Virus record (IMG/VR): IMGVR_UViG_3300031414_000008
Span: 118,633 to 182,632 of that record
DNA length: 64,000 nt
DNA from: a virus
Direction: 5' to 3' (one strand)
Position numbers and translations under genes: made by a program. The notes under the pieces were generated by a model. That model ran no database searches. It had not been told where the DNA came from and saw nothing but the letters and a program-made list of their open reading frames with translations. Below are positions 2,548-53,057 of this stretch, one piece after another; positions within the stretch are counted from its first letter, which is position 1, and every line of letters begins with the position of its first letter.

Positions 2548-2825
2548 TGGACTACGTTCTCGCAAGCTACCTCGCCCTTAACGGCGAACCGGTCCGTCGG
2601 AAGTGTTGGCCACAGGATGTCTATGTGGTCATCAAGGGTGCGTCGAACCATATCTTCGCTCCCAAGACCACGCCGACGGTTTGGCACTATTCACGAGAAG
2701 ACTTTAAGGCTAAAGACTATGAGCGTTACCACACTGGACTTTGCCGGAGCAATCGAGCTCCTGAAACAGGGGAAGGCGGTGACCCGTCTGATCTGGCCGC
2801 ACAGCCGGATTCTAGTCAAGGATAA
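2544..2825 (+). CDS. DUF2829/Tad2-like protein (copy 1)
   Basis: MDY..A...L.GE.V.R..W start and W..S.ED..A.DY motif resemble DUF2829; C-terminal tail overlaps the next gene. Confidence 0.5.
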   Translation: MMDYVLASYLALNGEPVRRKCWPQDVYVVIKGASNHIFAPKTTPTVWHYSREDFKAKDYERYHTGLCRSNRAPETGEGGDPSDLAAQPDSSQG

Positions 2826-2958
2826 TCAGGTCGTCATTCAGCACGAAGTAACCATGCCAGGGGTAACGCCCTGGCATTTTACTTTTGCGGACATGACCGC
2901 CGTTGACTACGTCGAGGCGTTCTTTAACCACCGGGACACCACGGTACCTATTCAATAA
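2719..2958 (+). CDS. DUF2829/Tad2-like protein (copy 2)
   Basis: LDFAGAIELLKQGKAVTRLIW ... PWHFTFADMTAVDY fits the DUF2829 pattern (F.eAl..lk.GkkV.R..W ... W.p...D.la.Dw). Confidence 0.65.
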   Translation: MSVTTLDFAGAIELLKQGKAVTRLIWPHSRILVKDNQVVIQHEVTMPGVTPWHFTFADMTAVDYVEAFFNHRDTTVPIQ

Positions 2959-15935: not shown

Positions 15936-16436
15936 ATGTTATCTCGCGAAGAAATTATTCAGAAAATCATTGAGGATGAAGCGGTTACAGCTTCCCTGAT
16001 GGAACTGTCCCGTACTCATGATATGGACAAGCTGCACGTTGCCTTCCCGCATTACTTCAAAGCGTGTGCCGCCCTGGCGACCGTCGTTAATGACATGGGC
16101 CTGACGACCACCAACACGCCACCGGACGCAGTGGGCGTTGCCAAACTTCTCCCGTTGGTCACGATCGGTATGCCAGGCTTCAATGACGGCTTCGTGTCTC
16201 ACTGGGGCGATCAGTACCTGAAGATGACGGGGGTCCCGGAGGTCTTCTACGAAGAAGCTGGCCACGAGGCCCGGGCCAAGGGTGAAGGTGGAGAGCCGAA
16301 CTATCTGCATGGCCTGCTCGTCCTGGACTTGATCGGTGACTTGATCGTTCAAATGGCCGGCACCCACTTGATGATGGCAGCGGCGTTCAATATGGAAAAA
16401 GGCCTGCAGGCCGCAAACGGAGACTTCAAAGCATGA
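15936..16436 (+). CDS. hypothetical protein
   Basis: 166 aa, aagga RBS. Confidence 0.75.
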   Translation: MLSREEIIQKIIEDEAVTASLMELSRTHDMDKLHVAFPHYFKACAALATVVNDMGLTTTNTPPDAVGVAKLLPLVTIGMPGFNDGFVSHWGDQYLKMTGVPEVFYEEAGHEARAKGEGGEPNYLHGLLVLDLIGDLIVQMAGTHLMMAAAFNMEKGLQAANGDFKA

Positions 16437-16894
16437 ACGACATCTACCACATCCTGAAAGCGGTCTTCCTGAACGAAACCATGACCTCAGCGATCCGCCA
16501 GGCGGGCTTGGTCCGTCAGCGTCACTTACTCGCGGCACTGCGTGAAGATCCACCGTCAGCCGAACTCGCTCTGTCGACCATGAAGACTCAACACGTGTTC
16601 CTCGCTGAACTGTGCAAGGCGATGACCGAAGAAGGTGTTCCGGCAGAGGTCCTGGATGGTCTGGGCTTCCACTCGCTGATGTTCTTCGGGACTAACCCTC
16701 GGCTCGTCGAGATCGCCATCCTGGCTGTCTCCGGTGAAGAGGAGTACTCGCTCGAGCGGCTGGAAGAGATCATCTCGGTCAAGCCAGACACCTCTGCGAT
16801 CATCGCCGGTGAGGAATTCCCTGTCGACACACTGATGTGGCTGCGTCACATGGGCAACAGCTTTGCCACTTACCTGGTGAAGTGTGCCAAATAA
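16433..16894 (+). CDS. hypothetical protein
   Basis: 153 aa, ATGA coupling. Confidence 0.75.
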   Translation: MNDIYHILKAVFLNETMTSAIRQAGLVRQRHLLAALREDPPSAELALSTMKTQHVFLAELCKAMTEEGVPAEVLDGLGFHSLMFFGTNPRLVEIAILAVSGEEEYSLERLEEIISVKPDTSAIIAGEEFPVDTLMWLRHMGNSFATYLVKCAK

Positions 16895-16897
16895 ACG

Positions 16898-16917
16898 AAG
16901 AGGGGAAACCCTCTTTT
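16898..16917 (+). terminator. Rho-independent terminator
   Basis: aagagg-ggaaac-cctctttt. Confidence 0.7.
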
Positions 16918-16978
16918 AGCTTTTCGTTACATGAAAGGTTACACGAAAACCCTGATATACCGGGCTTTAGAGGGGGTT

Positions 16979-17134
16979 CAAACGTTGTAACCTTTCAAAC
17001 GTCACCCTAAGACATCTATAGGTAGAGTCCTACTATATATATTACGAATGTCTTTTTTATAAAAATAAATAATATATGGACCCTAAGGGGCTATAGGGCT
17101 GTCTTGAGGTGGGTTCGAACGGTTACAACGTTTG
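16979..17134. repeat. 156-bp quasi-palindromic AT-cored element, copy 1 (candidate replication origin)
   Basis: near-identical to 51185..51340 (about 7 mismatches counted by eye); terminal inverted repeats caaacgttgtaacc/ggttacaacgtttg. Confidence 0.9.
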
Positions 17135-17258
17135 AGTCCGCACGATCCGTTAAGCTCTTCGCAAAATCCCCGTAACCTACCTGCCCGAATCTGTGGTATA
17201 CTCAATATTGCCCGATCTGCAGGTATAACTAACATGTAACCCCTAACGGAGATCCTCC

Positions 17259-17852
17259 ATGATTGCTCAGATTGAAACTTACAACGGTGAGTTTTTTAAT
17301 TTAGATCCCAACGATTTCAGCGGGATCAACATCCACAACTTAGGCCACGCCCTGTCCGGCGTAAACCGTTTCAACTCTCACACGAACCGTATGTATTCAG
17401 TCGGTGAGCACTCGATTCACGTGGCGTCTCAGCTGCCACCTGAGTTACAATTAATCGGCCTGCTGCACGACGGCTCTGAAGCTTACATTCAGGATATCCC
17501 GTCACCGTTCAAGCAATTCCTCCCGGACTATGCGGCGATGGAAGAGCTGATCCAGAACAAAGTGTACCGGGCGTTCGGCCTGGACCCTGAGTGGGTTCGG
17601 GGCGTGTACCCTGCAGTGAAGCGTATCGACTCAATGATGTGCCAGGTTGAAGCGACTCACCTGCTCCACTCCGGTGGTGCGGGCTGGGCGGAAGACCACG
17701 GCCACCCGGGCATCTCGTGCCTGACCCCTGAACAAACGGAAGGTCTTTTTATGTGGGCCTACGTTCGAATCACCAAGAAGCAGTACTTTACTGGGCCGCT
17801 GAGCCCGGAATACATTAAGACAATTGTTGGAGACACCAATGCAAGTAACTAA
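17259..17852 (+). CDS. HD-domain 5'-deoxynucleotidase-like (YfbR family)
   Basis: HALS.VNRFNSHT...YSVGEHS, LLHDGSEAYI.DIPSP.K, VK.ID. Confidence 0.88.
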   Translation: MIAQIETYNGEFFNLDPNDFSGINIHNLGHALSGVNRFNSHTNRMYSVGEHSIHVASQLPPELQLIGLLHDGSEAYIQDIPSPFKQFLPDYAAMEELIQNKVYRAFGLDPEWVRGVYPAVKRIDSMMCQVEATHLLHSGGAGWAEDHGHPGISCLTPEQTEGLFMWAYVRITKKQYFTGPLSPEYIKTIVGDTNASN

Positions 17853-25696: not shown

Positions 25697-26048
25697 ATTC
25701 CTCGACCTCGTCTGCAGAATCCGCAGAGTACTGATCGACTAACATCTTGAAGGTCTCCTTCATGTGATTGGCGGCGTTGATCTGATCCCGCGGCGAGTCG
25801 GCCTTGACCAGACCCTCACGGTACAGCGTGTAGCGGGACCCGAAGTTCGACTTCTTGTCCGGGTTGTACACTTTCAACTTGGCCATATCCTTCGGAAGAG
25901 CGATCCCGACGTAGTCCGCCAGTCCTCCCTTGTCGTCCTTTTCGTAAATGAAGATCTCGGCGGGGAGATCACTCCCCTCCTTGACCGTTCCTAGCACCTC
26001 GTACTTCCCTGCACGAAAGCGTGTCGAGATCACGAGCGTATTAGGCAT
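25686..26048 (-). CDS. hypothetical virion-associated protein
   Basis: 120 aa in structural operon. Confidence 0.7.
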   Translation of the reverse strand: MPNTLVISTRFRAGKYEVLGTVKEGSDLPAEIFIYEKDDKGGLADYVGIALPKDMAKLKVYNPDKKSNFGSRYTLYREGLVKADSPRDQINAANHMKETFKMLVDQYSADSADEVEEYEL

Positions 26049-26535
26049 ACAGGATTCTCCACCAGAATTGCAGTGAGAAGGAGTCTACCTTCGGTACACT
26101 GCGGAACGTCTTGATGTTGAACATATCGCCGGACTGCTTAAAGAGCCCCACTTCGGAGATGTTCTCACCGTTCGCTTCATCCGGACCGAGCACGAAGTCG
26201 ACCGTGATGTAGTCCTGAGGGTCGGTGATGGCCGACGGAATGATACTCAGGTTACGGTTGTACGTGGTGATCGGTGAGTACAGGTCGTTCAGCGTCGGAT
26301 CTGGGCGCTTAGGCTTGCGGCCCAACGTGTCGTACGTACCGCCGTTCCCGATCTTGAAGGAGTCGATCAGGTTCGGCTTCGCGTCTTTATCCCAGAGGAA
26401 GCTCAGGTGCTCACGCTTCGCGGCACGGACGATCAGGTTCTTCTCCTCGACGAGGCGCTCGCGGCGCCCGTCATTCCACACTCGGTCGACGATCAGGAAC
26501 CCGTCCAGTACGTCTTTCTTGTCACTCAGTTTCAT
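26041..26535 (-). CDS. baseplate/tail-fibre attachment-like protein
   Basis: KNLIV, IG.GG, EANG..ISEVGLF...G.MF..KTF..VPK motif typical of myophage baseplate/fibre N-domains. Confidence 0.7.
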   Translation of the reverse strand: MKLSDKKDVLDGFLIVDRVWNDGRRERLVEEKNLIVRAAKREHLSFLWDKDAKPNLIDSFKIGNGGTYDTLGRKPKRPDPTLNDLYSPITTYNRNLSIIPSAITDPQDYITVDFVLGPDEANGENISEVGLFKQSGDMFNIKTFRSVPKVDSFSLQFWWRILYA

Positions 26536-42155: not shown

Positions 42156-43754
42156 TTATTCGGTATACTTGAAGTCGCCTTCAAGGTACTGGTACGCAAC
42201 GTGTGCGAAGACTACGGAGTGCATCCAGTCATCCGGTTCATCCGGGTGGTGACGGTACACACGACGGCCTACGCCGGTCTCTTCTTCGAAGACGTTCAGG
42301 GCATCGGTCCAGTAACCCTCAGTGATTGCCCAAGATGGACACATGAAGCGGTCCGGACCGATACGCCATTTCATCATCACGTTATCGATCGCCTGAGAGC
42401 GGTCAGCTGCCAGGAACTGGCCCTGCTGGTCCCAACGTAAACGTACCTTTGCTGCCACGTAGTTTACCATGATCACTTTATCATGTCCCAGCTCTTGTTG
42501 CATCAGCTGGCCCTGCAGAACGCCCACCCCGCGGTCAGAGCCGATGACGGCACAGTTCCACTTACGGGCTAAAAGACAGACGTCACGGACCTGCTCGAGG
42601 ATGTGGATCCCTTGCATCTTCTTCGATTCGAGCATGTAGCAGCGGCCGTAGCCGTCATACCCGAGGACGGTTGCCACGGTGTAGGACTTCACGCCACCGG
42701 TAACGGACCAGTCGACACCGAGCACGGTACGGGTGATCGTCGGGGCAATCTTCTTCCAGACCGGATCGGAGAAGTCGGTAGGGGACGCCCAGGACTTCCA
42801 CTCTTCGTTACAGCACTTCATGGCTTCCGCCATAGAGAGTGAACGACCGGAGAGGTCAGTGGCAAGCCCGAAGACTTCGTTCGCCAGCGTCGCTGGGGTG
42901 TAGAGGCCGCCTTCCTGAGCCTGTTTCACTTTATCGATGAGACGGGCCCACTTCTTCGGCTTGCAGTTATCGCCGATGATGATCTGCGGTAGGTGGAAGC
43001 CTACTTTATCCCTGATGTGCGGGTTGGTCGCCACCCACTGGCCGTCGGCCGGATGGACAGGCTTCAAGCATTTATCACAGGACGGACCGTGCGGCTGACA
43101 GATACGCACACACTTCTCGTACGTGTCCGGGATAATCCAGTGGCCACAGTGCGGGCACTTGCTGACCCACTCCAGACGGTTGGTACGCAGCCAGAGTTGC
43201 TCCAGGGTGTTCGCCGTGGACTTGGACGTGCCGGCCAGGACCTTCAGTGCATATTCGGAGGCGTTGAGGATTTCGAAGATCGGTGGTAGTGCGTCGTAGG
43301 ACACGTCCTGGACTTCGTCTACGGTTAACAGATCGGCCATCAGACCACGGATACGGTCGGCGTCAGATTCGGTCTGGGCGTACGACAGGTAGATCTTTGA
43401 TTTGTTCGCCAGTGTCTTCTCGAAGACGTTGCTCGGGTCGTTTGAACGACGGAAGTATTTCTTCACGAGCGGGCTCTCCAGGAAGGCATCAAGGTAGGCG
43501 TTCGAGAAACGCTTCGCCTGGATCTGGAAAGGTGCGATGTACAGGGAGTTGAAGTACGGGCGACCGATCGACTTGGACACTAAGCGTCCGCCGAGGGATA
43601 CCGACTTCCCGATCTGACGACCGGCTTTGAAGACCATCAGGTCCGGGTCGACGTCATAGATAGCGGTAAAGGGCTTATAATCCGTGAAGTTGATCGGTTT
43701 ACCCTTCAACTCCAGGAGAGCCGCCGCTAACTGACTCGAAGTAGCTTTTTTCAT
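42156..43754 (-). CDS. terL: terminase large subunit (GpA-like)
   Basis: KAGRQIGKS Walker A, LTVDEVQD Walker B, GTSKS, CPHCG Zn ribbon, LGVDW nuclease, PDDWMHS. Confidence 0.9.
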   Translation of the reverse strand: MKKATSSQLAAALLELKGKPINFTDYKPFTAIYDVDPDLMVFKAGRQIGKSVSLGGRLVSKSIGRPYFNSLYIAPFQIQAKRFSNAYLDAFLESPLVKKYFRRSNDPSNVFEKTLANKSKIYLSYAQTESDADRIRGLMADLLTVDEVQDVSYDALPPIFEILNASEYALKVLAGTSKSTANTLEQLWLRTNRLEWVSKCPHCGHWIIPDTYEKCVRICQPHGPSCDKCLKPVHPADGQWVATNPHIRDKVGFHLPQIIIGDNCKPKKWARLIDKVKQAQEGGLYTPATLANEVFGLATDLSGRSLSMAEAMKCCNEEWKSWASPTDFSDPVWKKIAPTITRTVLGVDWSVTGGVKSYTVATVLGYDGYGRCYMLESKKMQGIHILEQVRDVCLLARKWNCAVIGSDRGVGVLQGQLMQQELGHDKVIMVNYVAAKVRLRWDQQGQFLAADRSQAIDNVMMKWRIGPDRFMCPSWAITEGYWTDALNVFEEETGVGRRVYRHHPDEPDDWMHSVVFAHVAYQYLEGDFKYTE

Positions 43755-46042: not shown

Positions 46043-47273
46043 TGGCATCCTGGACCTGGTTCCGTTCATGTCCGCCCTGCTTACTGAAGATGCCTTCTTC
46101 GCCGGTGGCGACGTGCTTCAGAACCCGGAAGTGTACGTGCTGGGTAATGATGGCGCCCTGTACCAGTTCCACCAGTTCTCCATGGGCCGTTCAGCGATGA
46201 CCAAGATCTCTGACACGCCTATCCGTACCAACGGCGGCAAGTCCCTGCTGAAGCCGTACATGAAGCCGCTGGTCGAAGACAAGAAGATTCCGCTGGAGAT
46301 GCTGAACGATATCGTTGAGTTCTTCCGCCAGGTCATGAAAATGACCACGTCTTCTGGTTTCGGCCACGGTGACTATGAAGCGATGGCTCACATCGTCTGG
46401 AACAAGACGAAGAAAGAGTACCGTGTAGCGATTCCTAAGCAGAAAGTGGCGAAAGCATCCGTTACCTATAACTGGGATCACGTGGCAGCGGACGAAGAGG
46501 TTATCCTCGACATCCACTCTCACAACTCCATGGACGCGTTCTTCTCCGGTACCGATGAGCGTGATGACGCGACCTACGTGGGTATCTCTGGCGTCGCCGG
46601 TAAGCTGAACACCGACAACCACAAACTGATCTGGCGCTTCAACGCGTACAAATCTAAAGTGGTCATGAAGCTGGAGGACATCTTCGATGCGCCGCCGGTA
46701 AAGGAGGAGAGCCCGGTGGTCAAGGCGTGGATGGAGAACGTCGAGGTTCTGACTTATCAGCGTCCGTCCTACCCGGGCTACAGCCCCGCCCTGGGCGGCA
46801 GCAAAGTATATGGCGGTGGGTCACGCTCCCTCGCTGGCTCCGACAAGTTTCTCGAGCGTGATGAACGCGACGACTCCTGGAACGGTCAGCGTACCCAACG
46901 GGAGAGCAACTGGAATGCCCGATTTCGCGGAGAGAACGAGGAAGGGGTCACGGCGAGTGCTCGGACCACGCGATCTCAAGCGTCGGTAGACATCCTGGGT
47001 GCAGATGAAGGCACCTACGGTATTGGCCTGATTCACGAACTGGCGGACGAACCCTTTCAGACCTGGGACGAAACCGCTGATGAACTCGTCGCTTCTGTCT
47101 ACAGTGAGAATGACGACGAGCTGAACGCTGCCGTGGGCAAACGCTTACTGGAATACGTTGCGGATCCGGAAATCCTCTTCCAAGAGGGTGTCTTCCTGGC
47201 CTCCTCCGCTCTGGAAGCCCGTAAAGTGGTTGCCCGTCTCAACAAAGATTTTGATCTCGATCGAGGTATTTAA
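46020..47273 (+). CDS. JAB/MPN+ metallo-isopeptidase (PRTRC protein A-like) with C-terminal extension
   Basis: YEAMAHIVW, LDIHSHNSMDAFFSGTDERDD (E...HSH...S..D JAMM motif). Confidence 0.9.
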   Translation: MKMTKKNNGILDLVPFMSALLTEDAFFAGGDVLQNPEVYVLGNDGALYQFHQFSMGRSAMTKISDTPIRTNGGKSLLKPYMKPLVEDKKIPLEMLNDIVEFFRQVMKMTTSSGFGHGDYEAMAHIVWNKTKKEYRVAIPKQKVAKASVTYNWDHVAADEEVILDIHSHNSMDAFFSGTDERDDATYVGISGVAGKLNTDNHKLIWRFNAYKSKVVMKLEDIFDAPPVKEESPVVKAWMENVEVLTYQRPSYPGYSPALGGSKVYGGGSRSLAGSDKFLERDERDDSWNGQRTQRESNWNARFRGENEEGVTASARTTRSQASVDILGADEGTYGIGLIHELADEPFQTWDETADELVASVYSENDDELNAAVGKRLLEYVADPEILFQEGVFLASSALEARKVVARLNKDFDLDRGI

Positions 47274-48313
47274 TGTTTACCTACACCAATCGCCAGATGG
47301 TTACTAACGCGGTGATTGTAGGTTGTGGCGGGACTGGTTCCCGCCTTCTGCCTATGCTCTCGCAGTTGATGTCCCGTGGTAAATGGAACGACATGGTCCC
47401 GACGATCACCCTGATCGATGGCGACGAAGTTGAAGTGAAGAACCTGGCCCGCCAGAACTTCATTAGCGACGATGTCAGTCGTAACAAAGCGGAGTGCTTG
47501 GCGGAACGCTACGGCGGTGCCTTCGAGATTCCAACAGTTGCGATTCCGCAGTTCTTCCCAACGAACGCCCAGTCGATGCAACGCTGGCTGCAGTCTAACG
47601 TGCCGGAATCTATGAAGCGCCTGGTGGCAGACCGTCCTGCGGTCTTCTTCCTGTGTGTGGATAACATGAAGGCCCGCTATGCCATCATCCAGTCGATCCT
47701 GTACGCGACCATCCAGACCGGGATCGAGCACTTCATCGTGGACGCCGGTAACGAGAACACCTTCGGTCAGGCCCGCATCTTCTCCTCTCGCATCGTTCCG
47801 GATCGTGAGTACGAGAACGTGGATCTGGAAGACATGGCTCGTCTGGTGCCGAAAGGCTCTGAAGGTATTCCGGTACCGTACCTGCCATGCCCGATTGGTC
47901 AGTATCTGCGTGCCTCTGGCTATCAGGGTAACCCGGATGCATCCTGTGCGGACCTCGAGCAGACGGCGGCAGTGAACGCGATCATGGCAATGTCCATGTT
48001 CTCAATCATGCAGAACATCTACATGGGTCTGCCGCTGAAGGTCGAGACGTGGTTCTACGATATCCATAACGGTAACGACCAGACGCGTCTGAACCAGAGC
48101 TGGATGCGTGAAATCATGACGGGTAATCAGTATCGCGTGCCGAAGGACGAGAAGACGGATGCGTATCCGGTTTCTATCCAGGGGCTGCGTACGGTACAGG
48201 GTATGCCAGGCGTAAGCTTCTGGCCGGAGATTCAGAAGTCGATTAAGAAGATGCTTAAAGAAGGGAAACTCGAACGAGTCTCCCCTGAGATGGCTGAGAT
48301 CTTAGGACTCTAA
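47273..48313 (+). CDS. ThiF/E1-like ubiquitin-activating enzyme (PRTRC ThiF-like)
   Basis: VIVGCGGTGS, IDGDEVE.KNL.RQNF, KAE.LA.RY, CVDN..AR, DAGNE..FGQ, SCAD. Confidence 0.93.
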   Translation: MFTYTNRQMVTNAVIVGCGGTGSRLLPMLSQLMSRGKWNDMVPTITLIDGDEVEVKNLARQNFISDDVSRNKAECLAERYGGAFEIPTVAIPQFFPTNAQSMQRWLQSNVPESMKRLVADRPAVFFLCVDNMKARYAIIQSILYATIQTGIEHFIVDAGNENTFGQARIFSSRIVPDREYENVDLEDMARLVPKGSEGIPVPYLPCPIGQYLRASGYQGNPDASCADLEQTAAVNAIMAMSMFSIMQNIYMGLPLKVETWFYDIHNGNDQTRLNQSWMREIMTGNQYRVPKDEKTDAYPVSIQGLRTVQGMPGVSFWPEIQKSIKKMLKEGKLERVSPEMAEILGL

Positions 48314-48535
48314 GTCTACGCGGCGTTCTCGTGTAGCTTTGTCGGGGGAGTCGGAAACGCTGAACACGGCGATTTCGCTTCCCTCGGCATTGTACATCTT
48401 GAGAATGCCAGACTTTTTATCCCATTGCCAAGAGCCTGTCGCGGCTGCTTGGAGTTCGGCCGTCACCTCGAGGCCTTTTTTTACATCGGTATGGATCAGC
48501 TCAAGCTTCGCCATAACGTCATCGATAGTTGCCAT
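48302..48535 (-). CDS. hypothetical virion protein
   Basis: 77 aa, aggag RBS, TAATG coupling. Confidence 0.7.
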   Translation of the reverse strand: MATIDDVMAKLELIHTDVKKGLEVTAELQAAATGSWQWDKKSGILKMYNAEGSEIAVFSVSDSPDKATRERRVDLES

Positions 48536-48789
48536 TACAGCTCCTCTTTCTCAAAGGCCTTAGCCAGACGCAAGTGGTACTCAGCCATCTTTTTAGCATG
48601 GGCTTTTCCCACGTAGGCCATGAGGCCCTTGGGATCGCCTTTGGTGTAGGCTTTCGCTTGGGACTCATGGTACTTACGGTCGTGATACTCGTTGGCTTCG
48701 TGGCCGTTAGCCTGGTTGATTCGAGCGATGTGCTTACGCTCTAGCCTTTCCATACGTTCTTTCTCAGCACGAATCCGACTTAGTTTCAC
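48535..48789 (-). CDS. basic His-rich helical small protein
   Basis: 84 aa. Confidence 0.65.
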   Translation of the reverse strand: MKLSRIRAEKERMERLERKHIARINQANGHEANEYHDRKYHESQAKAYTKGDPKGLMAYVGKAHAKKMAEYHLRLAKAFEKEEL

Positions 48790-49265
48790 AGTTCCTCCAT
48801 CGCCAGTGCGTAGAGGCGGATAGCTTTCGCTCGGGCTTCACGCTGTTCGACGCCTTCATCTGGGTTGTTCAGATCGGTGACGAATTCGAACGGCGGTGGC
48901 GCTGAACCGAAGCCCTCATCCCGCAGGATGTACGAGCAGATCGTCTTGATGGCATTCGAAAGCTCCGCACCCGGAAGGATACGTAGCAGTTCGACTAAGC
49001 CCCAAGAGAGCTCAAGGACGTTCGGCATGTAGACCGTGGATGGATCAACGGCATGAGCGTTCGCTGCTTCGACGAATCGTAGGAAGTACGAGGCGTCGTT
49101 CAGGAACTTCTCAGGGTGCTTACCCAGGGTACGCAGCACCATCAGCTGAGAGACCATCACTGGGGTCAAGGCGTGGCCCAGATCCAGTGAGATCGTCTCA
49201 ACGGAGAGTTCAGGCCAGTCAGGCCCGTAGCGTTTGTCCAGGGTAGCTTTCAGTTTGCTTAGCAT
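48786..49265 (-). CDS. hypothetical (putative head/structural) protein
   Basis: 159 aa in − strand operon. Confidence 0.7.
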   Translation of the reverse strand: MLSKLKATLDKRYGPDWPELSVETISLDLGHALTPVMVSQLMVLRTLGKHPEKFLNDASYFLRFVEAANAHAVDPSTVYMPNVLELSWGLVELLRILPGAELSNAIKTICSYILRDEGFGSAPPPFEFVTDLNNPDEGVEQREARAKAIRLYALAMEEL

Positions 49266-50128
49266 CGGCAGATTCTCGCGAGTAGTTGTTTTTCAGCAAT
49301 TGGCAACGCTTCAACACCGTGTTTCAGGGTCATCAGGTCGCCGGCTAACAGTTCCGCGATGTCATCCCCAACCATCTGCTGTACTTGAGCCTTCGGGATC
49401 GCCTGCAGCTTCACAGCCGGAACGCTCTTCCCACCCAGATTCACCGTGATAGAGCGATCGATCGCTTCCTTAGTGAACCAGAAGGACTCTTTGTAGATGT
49501 CGCCCAGGTAACCCGCTTGTTTCTCGAAGTGGATAACGGCGTTCGCTAACGCACGGTTCTCTTCGACAGTCAGGGCATCAGTGTTGGTGCCACGGAAGAC
49601 TTCCGCCAGCTTGGTGAATTCCTGACGACCGGTTACCTTGGCACGGTGCTCAACGGCCATGACCGCGGCTTCTTTGTTAAGGCGACCTGCCCCGGCGTAC
49701 AGACGGACGAGATCAGATTGGATGTCATCGGCATAGTTATCATACAGGGCAGCCGCTTGGCTCGCAACCTTCTCGATGTCCATTAAGCCGGAACACTTGG
49801 ATTCGATAATCGCTTCTGCCGTACGGAGTTCGTACTCGATACCACGAGCTTCTTCAGCACGCATCGATGCAGCTTTCTCGAGGTTTCCAGAGAGGCGGGC
49901 AACTTCATCGCCAACGCCATAGAGACGAACGGCTTTCGCCACGCGGGCCATGTCGTCGTAATCGACAGTCTGTCCAGCGACCTTAGTCAGGAAGGCAATT
50001 TCCAGAGCGGATGCGACAGTACTGTCCTTATCTTTGGTAGGAAAGTCCTCTTCTACATACGCCCGCTTGATGAAACCAGCTGCCTCAGGCACCAGTTCCA
50101 GTACGTTTTTGATAGCATGAAGTGACAT
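49259..50128 (-). CDS. putative head-associated protein with repeated K-x-A-(S/A/G) motifs
   Basis: TKVAG, EKAAS, EKVAS, NKEAA, EKQAG, TKEAI. Confidence 0.75.
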   Translation of the reverse strand: MSLHAIKNVLELVPEAAGFIKRAYVEEDFPTKDKDSTVASALEIAFLTKVAGQTVDYDDMARVAKAVRLYGVGDEVARLSGNLEKAASMRAEEARGIEYELRTAEAIIESKCSGLMDIEKVASQAAALYDNYADDIQSDLVRLYAGAGRLNKEAAVMAVEHRAKVTGRQEFTKLAEVFRGTNTDALTVEENRALANAVIHFEKQAGYLGDIYKESFWFTKEAIDRSITVNLGGKSVPAVKLQAIPKAQVQQMVGDDIAELLAGDLMTLKHGVEALPIAEKQLLARICRC

Positions 50129-51057
50129 TATTGAACTCCTCTTTTCATGTCTCTCACTTGACGGGCAAAGTGTTCAAGTGCGTTAGTGTGTTGGATGTTT
50201 GACTCGTTCTGAGTGTGAAGCTGATTGATCCCTTCCTGTACCTCAGCACTGGATTCTGGGGTCGAGTTCAGCTCTCGTTGTGAGTTTACAACAAGGTCCA
50301 TCAGAGAACCGTAGTGGCCGCGGGACTTCGCTAACTTCTTAGCCAGTTCGCTCAGGCCCTGAGGGTTCAGCGGGACACCTTGGGTAGCCAGACCTTCCGC
50401 ACGTTTCAGAGCGTTCTCATACGCACCGGTGTCGTTGGAATCTGCCAGAGAGGCATAGTGGCCGTAGCGTGCAGACGCCACAGCGAACGGCGTTGCCGTA
50501 TCGCGGAAAGTCTTGATGACCGGATCCACGTTGATGTGGCGAGCGTGGCCATGACCGCCGATGGCACCGAAGGAAGCAGCTGCCAGAGCTTCGCCGCCTT
50601 GAGACGCTTCTTCGAGGTCTTCCTGCATTTGGGCACGGTCCTTTTTAGCCTGGTACATACTGAGAGCCGTGTTGATCAGTCCGCCGACGGCGCCGACGGC
50701 CATACCGGTACCGACGAGCAGTTTGACGTTCTTGTTGGACGCTGCAGTCTTCAGAGCATCCAGGACGCTACGCTTGGTCGCACCGGACTCGGACATCTCC
50801 AGGGCCAGCGGGACGGCCATACCCAGCGGTACGCCGGCTGCGGCACCACCGACGGTGCCTTTCACTACGTTGGTCAGTGCATTGACGGTAGAGGACGACT
50901 CACCACCAATACGCTTACGAAAGCCTGCCAGGACTTGCTTCTTGTCCTCGAGTGACAGGTTTGCGAACTGGGGATTGGCCACGAGAGCAGCGAACGGCTG
51001 CCCTGCTTTGTGAGCTCGGTACATTCCCCCGATAATTTCTTCAGTTGTCAATGACAT
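50128..51057 (-). CDS. putative virion membrane-associated protein
   Basis: Gly/Ala-rich hydrophobic segments; gagga RBS. Confidence 0.7.
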   Translation of the reverse strand: MSLTTEEIIGGMYRAHKAGQPFAALVANPQFANLSLEDKKQVLAGFRKRIGGESSSTVNALTNVVKGTVGGAAAGVPLGMAVPLALEMSESGATKRSVLDALKTAASNKNVKLLVGTGMAVGAVGGLINTALSMYQAKKDRAQMQEDLEEASQGGEALAAASFGAIGGHGHARHINVDPVIKTFRDTATPFAVASARYGHYASLADSNDTGAYENALKRAEGLATQGVPLNPQGLSELAKKLAKSRGHYGSLMDLVVNSQRELNSTPESSAEVQEGINQLHTQNESNIQHTNALEHFARQVRDMKRGVQ

Positions 51058-51184
51058 TAAGACGTTCCTCGTGTTGGATTACTATTGATATTTTAGCTAG
51101 AACGCCCATTTGTAACCACTCAAACGTTCATTCGTACGTCAAGGTTACAAGAAAACCCAGTCGTGGTGCGGGTTTCAGAGGATT

Positions 51185-51340
51185 CAAACGTTGTAACCTT
51201 TCAAACGTCACCCTAAGACATCTATAGGTAGAGTCCTACTATATATATTACGAATGTCTTTTTTTAAAAAATAAATAATATATGGACCCTAAAGGGCTAT
51301 AGGCCTGTCTTGGGGTGGGTTTGTACGGTTACAACGTTTG
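51185..51340. repeat. 156-bp quasi-palindromic AT-cored element, copy 2 (candidate replication origin)
   Basis: direct repeat of 16979..17134; 14-bp terminal inverted repeats; lies between divergent transcription units. Confidence 0.9.
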
Positions 51341-51430
51341 GCCTAGCCGGATCACTTGCCGCTCTAAGCATATCACGCAAACGTCATTCAATAAAAGCCG
51401 TACGGCGGGTATAACTAATACGGACCCAGG

Positions 51431-51449
51431 AGTACTCACGGTGAGTACT
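51431..51449. promoter_or_regulatory. operator-like palindrome / leader hairpin
   Basis: agtactcac-g-gtgagtact just downstream of promoter motif at 51408. Confidence 0.55.
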
Positions 51450-51495
51450 ATTCTTTTCGGGTCCAGGTTGCGGGACCTAACCCGTTGGAGGCAAA

Positions 51496-51597: not shown

Positions 51598-52065
51598 GTG
51601 ATGGAAAAAGTAGCCAGTGTCTTTAACTACCTACTCATGGGGAATCTGCAGATCAACCCCGCCGGTGAAAAGCCCAGCTTTGTAAGCAGTACGCTGGAAA
51701 ACAAGGTGAACTACTTTGTTGTCCTCGACTACGAGCAAGGCGTACCAGGTTCAGCACCAGTGCCGAAGTTCTGCTACTACCCTGTGAAATTCGAAGTGAT
51801 CAGCAATCGTCTGTTCCTCCGTAAGTTCCCCGGCCTACTCGCCGACGGTATCTTGATGCTCGCCCGCAAGAAGGCGATCGAGATTTCCATCGATGAGTTG
51901 ACCCGTGGGCGTATTCTTTTAGGGGATCGTGTGATAGACTTCTCCGAGCTGGAAGAGCGTTACGCAGCGATCGTTGCAGACGCCCCAACGCTCGTGACCG
52001 AAGACCGTCTGTCGGAAGTCACACTGTTCGCATACACCGTTAACCCAATGGCCTATTGGCAATAA
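51598..52065 (+). CDS. hypothetical protein
   Basis: 155 aa, gagg RBS. Confidence 0.75.
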   Translation: MMEKVASVFNYLLMGNLQINPAGEKPSFVSSTLENKVNYFVVLDYEQGVPGSAPVPKFCYYPVKFEVISNRLFLRKFPGLLADGILMLARKKAIEISIDELTRGRILLGDRVIDFSELEERYAAIVADAPTLVTEDRLSEVTLFAYTVNPMAYWQ

Positions 52066-53057
52066 GGAACCTCATGAACCTATTTATCAACGAGAACTTC
52101 ATCGATACCGTTGGCACCAAGCCTAGCGTTATCCAACTGATCCGCCAGATCGCTGAAGATGACGAAATCATCCACGGTGAAGTCCTGGAAGCCCTGCGTG
52201 AAGTCCTGGACTACGACAGCATCGAGTCTCTGGAAGTTGACATCCGTGACGGCGACGTCGAGGAAGTGGCCCTTCTGGACGACGCACTGTACGTTGAAGG
52301 CCAGACCCTGGTCGATCTCTTCGAGAACCTGTACCCGGGCGACTACACTGCAGTGATCTCCGCTCTGGTGGCGTCTATCCAGAACTCTACCGGTCCTACC
52401 CTGCGTGTGGATCATAACGGTGTCGTGGCGGTTCCGCCGGAAGTGACCACTGACGCTAACACCCAGCTGAATGCGTTCGTTGAGCCGTGGCTATCGGAAG
52501 CTGCACCGAATCTGTCCGCTGCAGTGGCCGCTGACGTCCGTCTGGGCGGTGAACGCACCCAGAGCATCGCTGAGCCAGTTCCTGCAGATCACGTGATTAC
52601 AGCTATCGACAACCAGACTGTGACCGTACGCCCAGTTCAGGTGGCACCCTTTTCGCCGGCGGAAGAAGTACAACGCCCCGAAGTGGCTGTACTGAGCTCT
52701 CAGACTATCCTGGGCAAGCTGACCTTCAATAACACTCAGATCCGTACCGTGTTCCCGTCAGGTGTGAACGGCGTACTGTTCAACGTGGCTGACCTGTACA
52801 ATGCCATCTATGGCATGCATGCAGATCAGAACTACCTGCAGCAGCTGGTTCGCCAGAACGCAGGGGCACTGGACCGCGGTGACGTGCGTGTGATTGATGG
52901 TTACGTGATGCTGAGCCTTCCGGCTCTGGCGACTATTCACCCACACATCTCTCCGTGCGTTGAATGGTATCCGACCATCATGAAGGTCACCAACTTCTAC
53001 GCTAACGGCCCGCATAACGATGTGGAATACGACCTCCTGGGCAACCTGGTAGGTTAA
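52056..53057 (+). CDS. acidic protein with C-terminal Bro-N-like domain
   Basis: LTFNNTQIRTV......VLFNVADLYNAI resembles Bro-N; true start may be 52074. Confidence 0.6.
   Translation: MAIRNLMNLFINENFIDTVGTKPSVIQLIRQIAEDDEIIHGEVLEALREVLDYDSIESLEVDIRDGDVEEVALLDDALYVEGQTLVDLFENLYPGDYTAVISALVASIQNSTGPTLRVDHNGVVAVPPEVTTDANTQLNAFVEPWLSEAAPNLSAAVAADVRLGGERTQSIAEPVPADHVITAIDNQTVTVRPVQVAPFSPAEEVQRPEVAVLSSQTILGKLTFNNTQIRTVFPSGVNGVLFNVADLYNAIYGMHADQNYLQQLVRQNAGALDRGDVRVIDGYVMLSLPALATIHPHISPCVEWYPTIMKVTNFYANGPHNDVEYDLLGNLVG

Follow-up and report, generated by a model that had tools for sequence, protein, structure and literature searches.

The window analyzed here is a stretch of 64,000 nucleotides corresponding to bases 118633–182632 of the viral genome IMGVR_UViG_3300031414_000008 (G000, 182,632 bp, hereafter W); among named phages the closest is Salmonella phage Arash (OQ632216), whose DNA is approximately 80% identical. 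A repeat search of the window reveals a sole long dispersed family (200 nt, 89% identity), far beyond chance. The two 156-bp copies reported in the earlier note, which differ by 7 mismatches, were found at 16979–17134 (copy A) and 51185–51340 (copy B); both begin with CAAACGTTGTAACC and end with GGTTACAACGTTTG, as expected from the inverted repeat said to bound them, and the extra GTAACC/GGTTAC sites described around them are present at 16938, 17172, 51112 and 51143. The 156-bp element is thus real as it had been delimited, but homology runs approximately 60 bp further upstream, giving a unit of about 220 bp that extends over 16925–17134 (copy A) and 51128–51340 (copy B). The constituents of both copies and their immediate neighbors are, in window coordinates:

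16897–16925, plus strand: intrinsic terminator of the upstream gene (ORF 16433–16894), with an 8-bp stem and a T-run, directly before copy A
16926–16931 and 16938–16943, plus strand: two direct GTTACA sites, 12 bp apart, the upstream iterons of copy A
16946–16968, plus strand: short inverted repeat AAASCC-N11-GGSTTT of copy A, with a variable spacer
16979–17007, plus strand: left arm of copy A, made of CAAACGTTGTAACC (16979–16992) and the inner subsite TTTCAAACGTCACCC, near-invariant in 16 copies from four genomes and pairing with the right arm
16993–17080, plus strand: constant segment of copy A, with the AT core inside it; the 40-bp window of lowest stability is 17036–17075
17081–17120, plus strand: variable inner right segment of copy A (within-genome identity 76% in W and 67% in Arash)
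17121–17134, plus strand: right arm of copy A, GGTTACAACGTTTG, which is the left arm inverted; 13 pairs are invariant in 16 sequences
17201–17240, plus strand: promoter-like site (CTCAATAT box and GGTATAACTAA) for ORF 17259–17852, a neighbor of copy A outside the repeat
51128–51184, plus strand: upstream part of copy B, with a GTTACA site (51144–51149) and an AAAACCC...GGGTTT inverted repeat (51152–51175)
51185–51340, plus strand: core of copy B, comprising the left arm (51185–51198), the constant segment, the variable segment and the right arm (51327–51340)
51242–51281, plus strand: AT core of copy B, its least stable window by nearest-neighbor stability
51385–51420, plus strand: promoter-like site (TTCAATAA box and GGTATAACTAA at 51408), a neighbor of copy B outside the repeat

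Copy B is located in a divergent intergenic region, the upstream gene (50128–51057) being on the minus strand. Just 3′ of its promoter-like site, window positions 51425–51465 contain a T-run preceded by a nested hairpin (GGACCC...AGTACTCACGGTGAGTACT...GGGTCC), perhaps a leader attenuator or small RNA. Further 3′, two plus-strand ORFs of 155 and 333 residues (window 51598–53057) are conserved in relatives, and the Arash record near gp240 (OQ632216 171656–172540) shows an annotated gene on the opposite strand and large gaps; the Arash annotation around gp240 therefore looks doubtful. The terminase gene lies at window 42156–43754.

Two copies had been described, but a genome-wide search shows that W contains five copies, at positions 26291, 63479, 95179, 135607 and 169815 of G000, all on the plus strand and two of them within the window. 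The gaps between them measure 37.2, 31.7, 40.4, 34.2 and 39.0 kb, i.e. there is one module about every 36 kb. Five further complete genomes were recovered through IMG/VR pattern and terminase searches and one metagenome scan, namely G001 (182.6 kb), G003 (IMGVR_UViG_3300047563_000187, 175.3 kb), G004 (172.1 kb), G005 (176.3 kb) and G006 (176.0 kb), and form with W and Arash a family set of seven. Terminase proteins are down to 73% identical among the six genomes used for synteny; the closest named terminase relative according to the Arash paper (PMC10585845) is Colwellia phage 9A, a siphovirus of 105 kb. Five copies are present in all seven complete genomes. Self-BLAST of W, Arash, G001, G003, G004 and G005 yields one repeat of 220–260 bp occurring five times and no other dispersed family, and the count for G006 comes from a targeted search with its own element. 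Tandem duplications of approximately 115–185 bp were also noticed in G000 (47470–47742, inside the large minus-strand ORF 46090–50958), G004 (64871–65247) and G005 (84300–84656).

Within each genome all copies are on one strand, with the exception of one inverted copy in G003. The latter module (100026–100282) is opposite to the other four, the flanking gene order being kept, and several W genes of this site are missing around it. Spacing was evaluated against a null model of five random points on a circle, as the probability that the smallest gap is at least as large as the one observed. The ratio of smallest to mean gap is 0.87 in W (P = 3e-4) and 0.90–0.93 in G001, Arash, G004 and G005 (P = 2e-5 to 9e-5). 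Spacing is looser in G003, with a smallest gap of 0.72 of the mean, and the gaps of G006 (32.9–39.5 kb) are about as even as those of W, G001, Arash, G004 and G005. Comparison of the flanks by tblastx, done for six genomes, assigns the modules of each to one shared set of five intergenic positions, so the even spacing represents a retained ancestral state and not six independent events. No blastn similarity is found between the element of W and those of G003, G004 and G005. A terminator precedes four of the five W copies and at least three of the five modules in each genome, the genes next after copy 1 are antisense to the module, and all five W modules are on the same strand as the 88-kb early-gene block.

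The GGTATAA sequences that had been read as promoters following both copies are indeed present (17222 and 51408), but they belong to a separate promoter-like class outside the repeat. This class, TyCAATAA-N13/14-tGGTATAAGtAAgGTGTAAAC, has 41 plus-strand sites in the genome, with one GGTATAA on the minus strand, and probably represents the early or middle promoters of a phage with its own RNA polymerase and sigma factors; a further site of the class is at window 43795 (G000 162427). A rarer variant, GGTATAAC, occurs 3′ of W copies 2, 4 and 5, at 68–88 bp past the right arm. Assignment of the module core itself to the general promoter class was rejected: it contains no match to TyCAATAA-N13/14-tGGTATAAG, and its own 15-mer, TATATATTACGAATG, is found only in the five modules of the W genome.

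Sixteen copies from W, G001, Arash and a fragment were aligned, as were those of the other lineages, and reveal a shared order of elements: usually an upstream terminator, then the GTTMCA site or sites (one or two at this place, 12 bp apart when there are two), the short inverted repeat, the left arm, a constant segment of about 90 bp that ends in the AT-rich core, a variable segment of about 40 bp and the inverted right arm. The left arm is composed of two tandem half-sites, both arms carry lineage-specific half-sites, and the arms stand in inverted orientation approximately 130 bp apart with the AT core near the center of symmetry. The arm motif is GTTACAACG in W, G001 and Arash, GATACG in G004 and G005, TGTGTCG in G003, and TGTGACA/TGTTACA in G006. 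Since these four arm types share one layout, the architecture is conserved while the arm motifs change. The sequence GTTMCA occurs 95 times in the 30 modules of six genomes against 7.6 expected, an approximately 13-fold enrichment seen in all lineages with 2–5 occurrences per module. The inverted repeat AAASCC-N11-GGSTTT, whose spacer sequence varies from copy to copy, is found in every copy of W, G001, Arash, G004 and G005, in two of the five G006 copies and in none of G003. As a separate observation, GATC, which occurs genome-wide about once per 146 bp, is approximately four-fold depleted in the modules (20 occurrences vs. 80 expected in six genomes).

Scoring of duplex melting with nearest-neighbor stabilities shows for six genomes that the five AT cores are, in each, the five least stable windows at a length of 40 bp and also at 60 bp; the W cores are at about −38 kcal/mol, for a genome mean of −58.4 (sd 3.6). 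The cores differ in sequence from lineage to lineage, which suggests that what is conserved is their low stability. Together with the GTTMCA enrichment, this bears out the structural part of the earlier proposal, in which repeats of a protein-binding site stand beside a DNA-unwinding element. Selection or gene conversion acting on the repeat had also been suggested, and concerted evolution can now be measured. Among the five copies of a genome, identity in the constant segment is 97.3% for W, 99.5% for G001 and 99.6% for Arash; between genomes it falls to 91.6% for W and G001 and to only 62.9% for W and Arash. In this segment orthologous pairs are no more alike than non-orthologous ones, which means that its positional signal has been erased. 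The upstream part retains this signal (84.8% vs. 68.5% for W and G001), and the inner right segment is heterogeneous within a genome, at the identities listed above. Since the constant segment is homogenized and these two parts are not, the copies exchange sequence mostly over the stretch from arm to core.

Based on these data, we tentatively regard the five modules as replication origins of the type that combines iterons with an unwinding element, a reading to which we assign a probability of roughly 0.45. It is the most likely function because the modules place repeated binding sites, in inverted arms, on both sides of the genome's most meltable DNA, which is the layout of iteron-type and herpesvirus-type origins. 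In the mechanism that we envisage, a phage DNA-binding protein would recognize the lineage-specific motifs of the arms as well as the GTTMCA sites, the DNA between the arms would bend or loop and so stress the AT core until it opens, and the phage helicase–primase would be loaded there; protein binding, unwinding and initiation are inferred. The chromosome of approximately 182 kb would in this way be split into replicons of approximately 36 kb, and ectopic recombination among the five copies would keep the arm-to-core segment identical within a genome. Even spacing would speed replication of a 182-kb chromosome, and orientation along the early-gene block would favor co-directional movement of forks and transcription. 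On the other hand, a shared orientation and an identical segment of about 90 bp in all copies are not obviously needed for origins. Whole-genome GC skew is flat and no 36-kb periodicity is seen in GC3 or AT3 skew, which is a weak test for phages, and the modules show no enrichment in DnaA, IHF or Chi sites.

Candidates for an initiator were screened by ranking the W proteins according to high identity within the lineage with GTTACA arms combined with low identity outside it. The ten that rank highest are proteins of unknown function, a Tad2-like protein and a phosphoesterase, and Pfam and PHROG scans gave no initiator among them; the proteins that co-vary with arm type are small ones of unknown function. 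An Atlas search for an initiator returned nothing, and window-wise identity along the three helicases and the primase-helicase shows no domain that tracks arm type. The genes beside the modules contain no Pfam domain except DUF3307 and a sub-threshold P22_AR_N match. The latter concerns a conserved protein of 120 residues (G000 25850–26212, plus strand) directly 5′ of copy 1, which resembles the N-terminal domain of the P22 antirepressor (Bro-N-like, DNA-binding) with an E-value of 0.0017, below threshold; a role as module-binding protein is possible but unsupported. Copies 2 and 5 each have a gene for a protein of approximately 330 residues downstream; the two proteins are not paralogous. The Tad2-like protein has 113 residues (window 2617–2958, plus strand), and its match to the Thoeris anti-defense domain PF11195 (E-value 3e-6) is above cut-off; its conservation is strong inside the W/G001/Arash lineage and far weaker outside.

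It is less likely, though by no means far-fetched, that the modules are linked to transcription, either as loading sites or special promoters for a virion RNA polymerase, sigma factor or helicase, or as enhancer-like regions upstream of the next promoter. With a single orientation and even spacing, any circularly permuted chromosome would then show a site within its first approximately 36 kb on entry, so that transcription could begin early or could drive the entry of DNA, as in T7 and N4. In Arash virions the most abundant proteins include the RNA polymerase proteins Gp206 and Gp216, the sigma factor Gp10 and the helicase Gp217 (PMC10585845), and since these activities are packaged in the virion, transcription-linked roles stay plausible. 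The frequent upstream terminators, the GGTATAAC site after three of the five W modules and the location of all W copies on the strand of the early-gene block fit this explanation, as does the core, whose easy melting would suit a promoter too. The class-I core TATATATATTAC is moreover loosely similar to the early promoter of the AR9 virion RNA polymerase, AAATATATATTAT-N6-G (PMC5312081), but the resemblance is missing in the other three lineages, and a likeness to AR9/phiKZ early promoters that is limited to one lineage is given little weight. Further points against a transcriptional role are that the core motif is confined to the five modules when the 41-member class already serves the plus-strand genes, that no sigma-70-type promoter is found inside the modules, that copy 1 is followed by antisense genes and one G003 copy is inverted, and that inverted arms some 130 bp apart are not a promoter feature.

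Somewhat less probable again is a function in packaging, recombination or chromosome organization, the modules being multiple pac-like entry sites for terminase, hot spots of recombination, or sites of anchoring or topoisomerase action at the borders of loops of approximately 36 kb. The pac sites of P1 and SPP1 have repeated sites on both sides of a center of about 100–130 bp, a layout that the modules recall in that bendable AT-rich DNA lies between repeated motifs. One orientation would suit directional packaging, even spacing would suit a structural role, and concerted evolution demonstrates that the copies do recombine. The P1 and SPP1 pac sites, however, are single and at or near the terminase genes, and the modules are five in number and far from them, none adjoining a terminase gene. 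The assemblies of G004 and G006 are broken at a module, but contig breaks at repeats are an ordinary assembly effect, and those of W, G001, G003 and G005 end elsewhere, the Arash record starting at the terminase gene. Neither a pac site nor a loop anchor, moreover, gives a reason for the least stable core in every lineage. An improbable combination would have the co-oriented, evenly spaced modules dock the virion complex of RNA polymerase, sigma factor and helicase; a circularly permuted chromosome would offer one of them within its first fifth on entry, and transcription from that point would draw in the remaining DNA and prime replication at the melted core, thereby coupling entry, early transcription and origin firing.

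The description of the element as a quasi-palindrome had to be qualified: it does fold well when single-stranded, forming a long imperfect hairpin (DNA z −7.0; RNA z −6.3 and −8.8, on either strand), but the only part of the arms whose complementarity holds throughout the relatives is their outer 13 bp. A five-copy gene for a small non-coding RNA, or a hairpin for RNA processing, would account for this folding and, through a single product, for the constant segment shared by all copies. Rfam, however, returned no family for the module, the alifold consensus has a covariation term of −0.84 and keeps only the invariant arm pairs, the inner stems of W are not kept in G001 or Arash, no promoter is recognized, and even spacing is left without a reason. 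A structured RNA is thus ruled against by present evidence, namely no Rfam family and no covariation, and we consider this explanation very improbable. No tRNA was found in the window. Coding was rejected as well, the length of the T-run varying between copies through indels. Small ORFs are annotated across the non-coding modules of Arash (gp115c/gp116c at 66238–66938 and gp171c at 100204–100371); these are probably spurious gene calls. Least credible of all is a selfish, MITE-like miniature inverted-repeat element spread to five sites, for despite 14-bp terminal inverted repeats and an AT-rich, non-coding interior in a multi-copy element of about 156 bp, there are always five copies, in a seventh genome as in the six whose sites are syntenic, no target-site duplication is found beside the arms in the aligned copies, homology reaches beyond the inverted repeats and transposition would not space the copies evenly; fixed sites and copy number without target duplications thus indicate that the modules are not a mobile element.

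The closest known systems include the origins oriL and oriS of herpes simplex virus (HSV), which are palindromic, with an AT-rich center and inverted boxes for binding of UL9, and the viral genome has three origins. The phage modules are similar in that a quasi-palindrome of approximately 150 bp with an AT-rich center and inverted sequence-specific sites is present in several copies, in a virus of the same realm, Duplodnaviria. Unlike the HSV origins, they are five, evenly spaced and co-oriented, carry additional sites upstream and another short inverted repeat, and lack complementarity between their inner arms; among the phage helicases and primase, none was identified as an origin-binding helicase of the UL9 type. 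Being multi-copy, homogenized, conserved in position and non-coding, the modules also bring to mind the hrs of baculoviruses, dispersed non-coding homologous regions with imperfect palindromes and conserved positions which are closer to each other within a genome than between species and have been proposed as origins and enhancers. The analogy with hrs drawn in the earlier note is fair as a statement of how the modules may work, but membership in that class fails, the aligned modules containing no tandem palindrome arrays: hrs are tandem palindromes of about 30 bp, variable in copy number, uneven and not co-oriented, whereas the modules always number five, each with a single quasi-palindrome of 156 bp.

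Clustered sites, an AT-rich unwinding element and an intergenic position at the boundaries of transcription units are shared with the iteron origins (lambda ori, P1 oriR, P4 ori/crr) and with the origins made of a promoter and an unwinding element (T4 oriF/oriG and the T7 primary origin). These are single or non-homologous within their genome, however, and the modules lack DnaA and IHF sites and any recognized promoter reading into the core. Like REP/BIME sequences and MITEs, the modules are extragenic, palindromic, multi-copy and located after terminators; they differ from them in their fixed number, fixed syntenic sites, even spacing and absence of target duplications. A literature search for evenly spaced or homologous repeats in phages found no such layout described.

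As Salmonella phage Arash has been cultured, the predictions are directly testable. Whatever their function, the strict five-fold copy number, the even spacing and the synteny, maintained although the elements cannot be aligned and the arm motifs change, make the modules a clean system for the study of co-evolution between a cis element and its binding protein and of the role of spacing. If they are origins, this would be the first described family of bacterial viruses that divides its chromosome into equal replicons, by means of a fixed number of homologous, co-oriented and concertedly evolving origins, an organization hitherto linked to large eukaryotic DNA viruses such as baculoviruses and herpesviruses.
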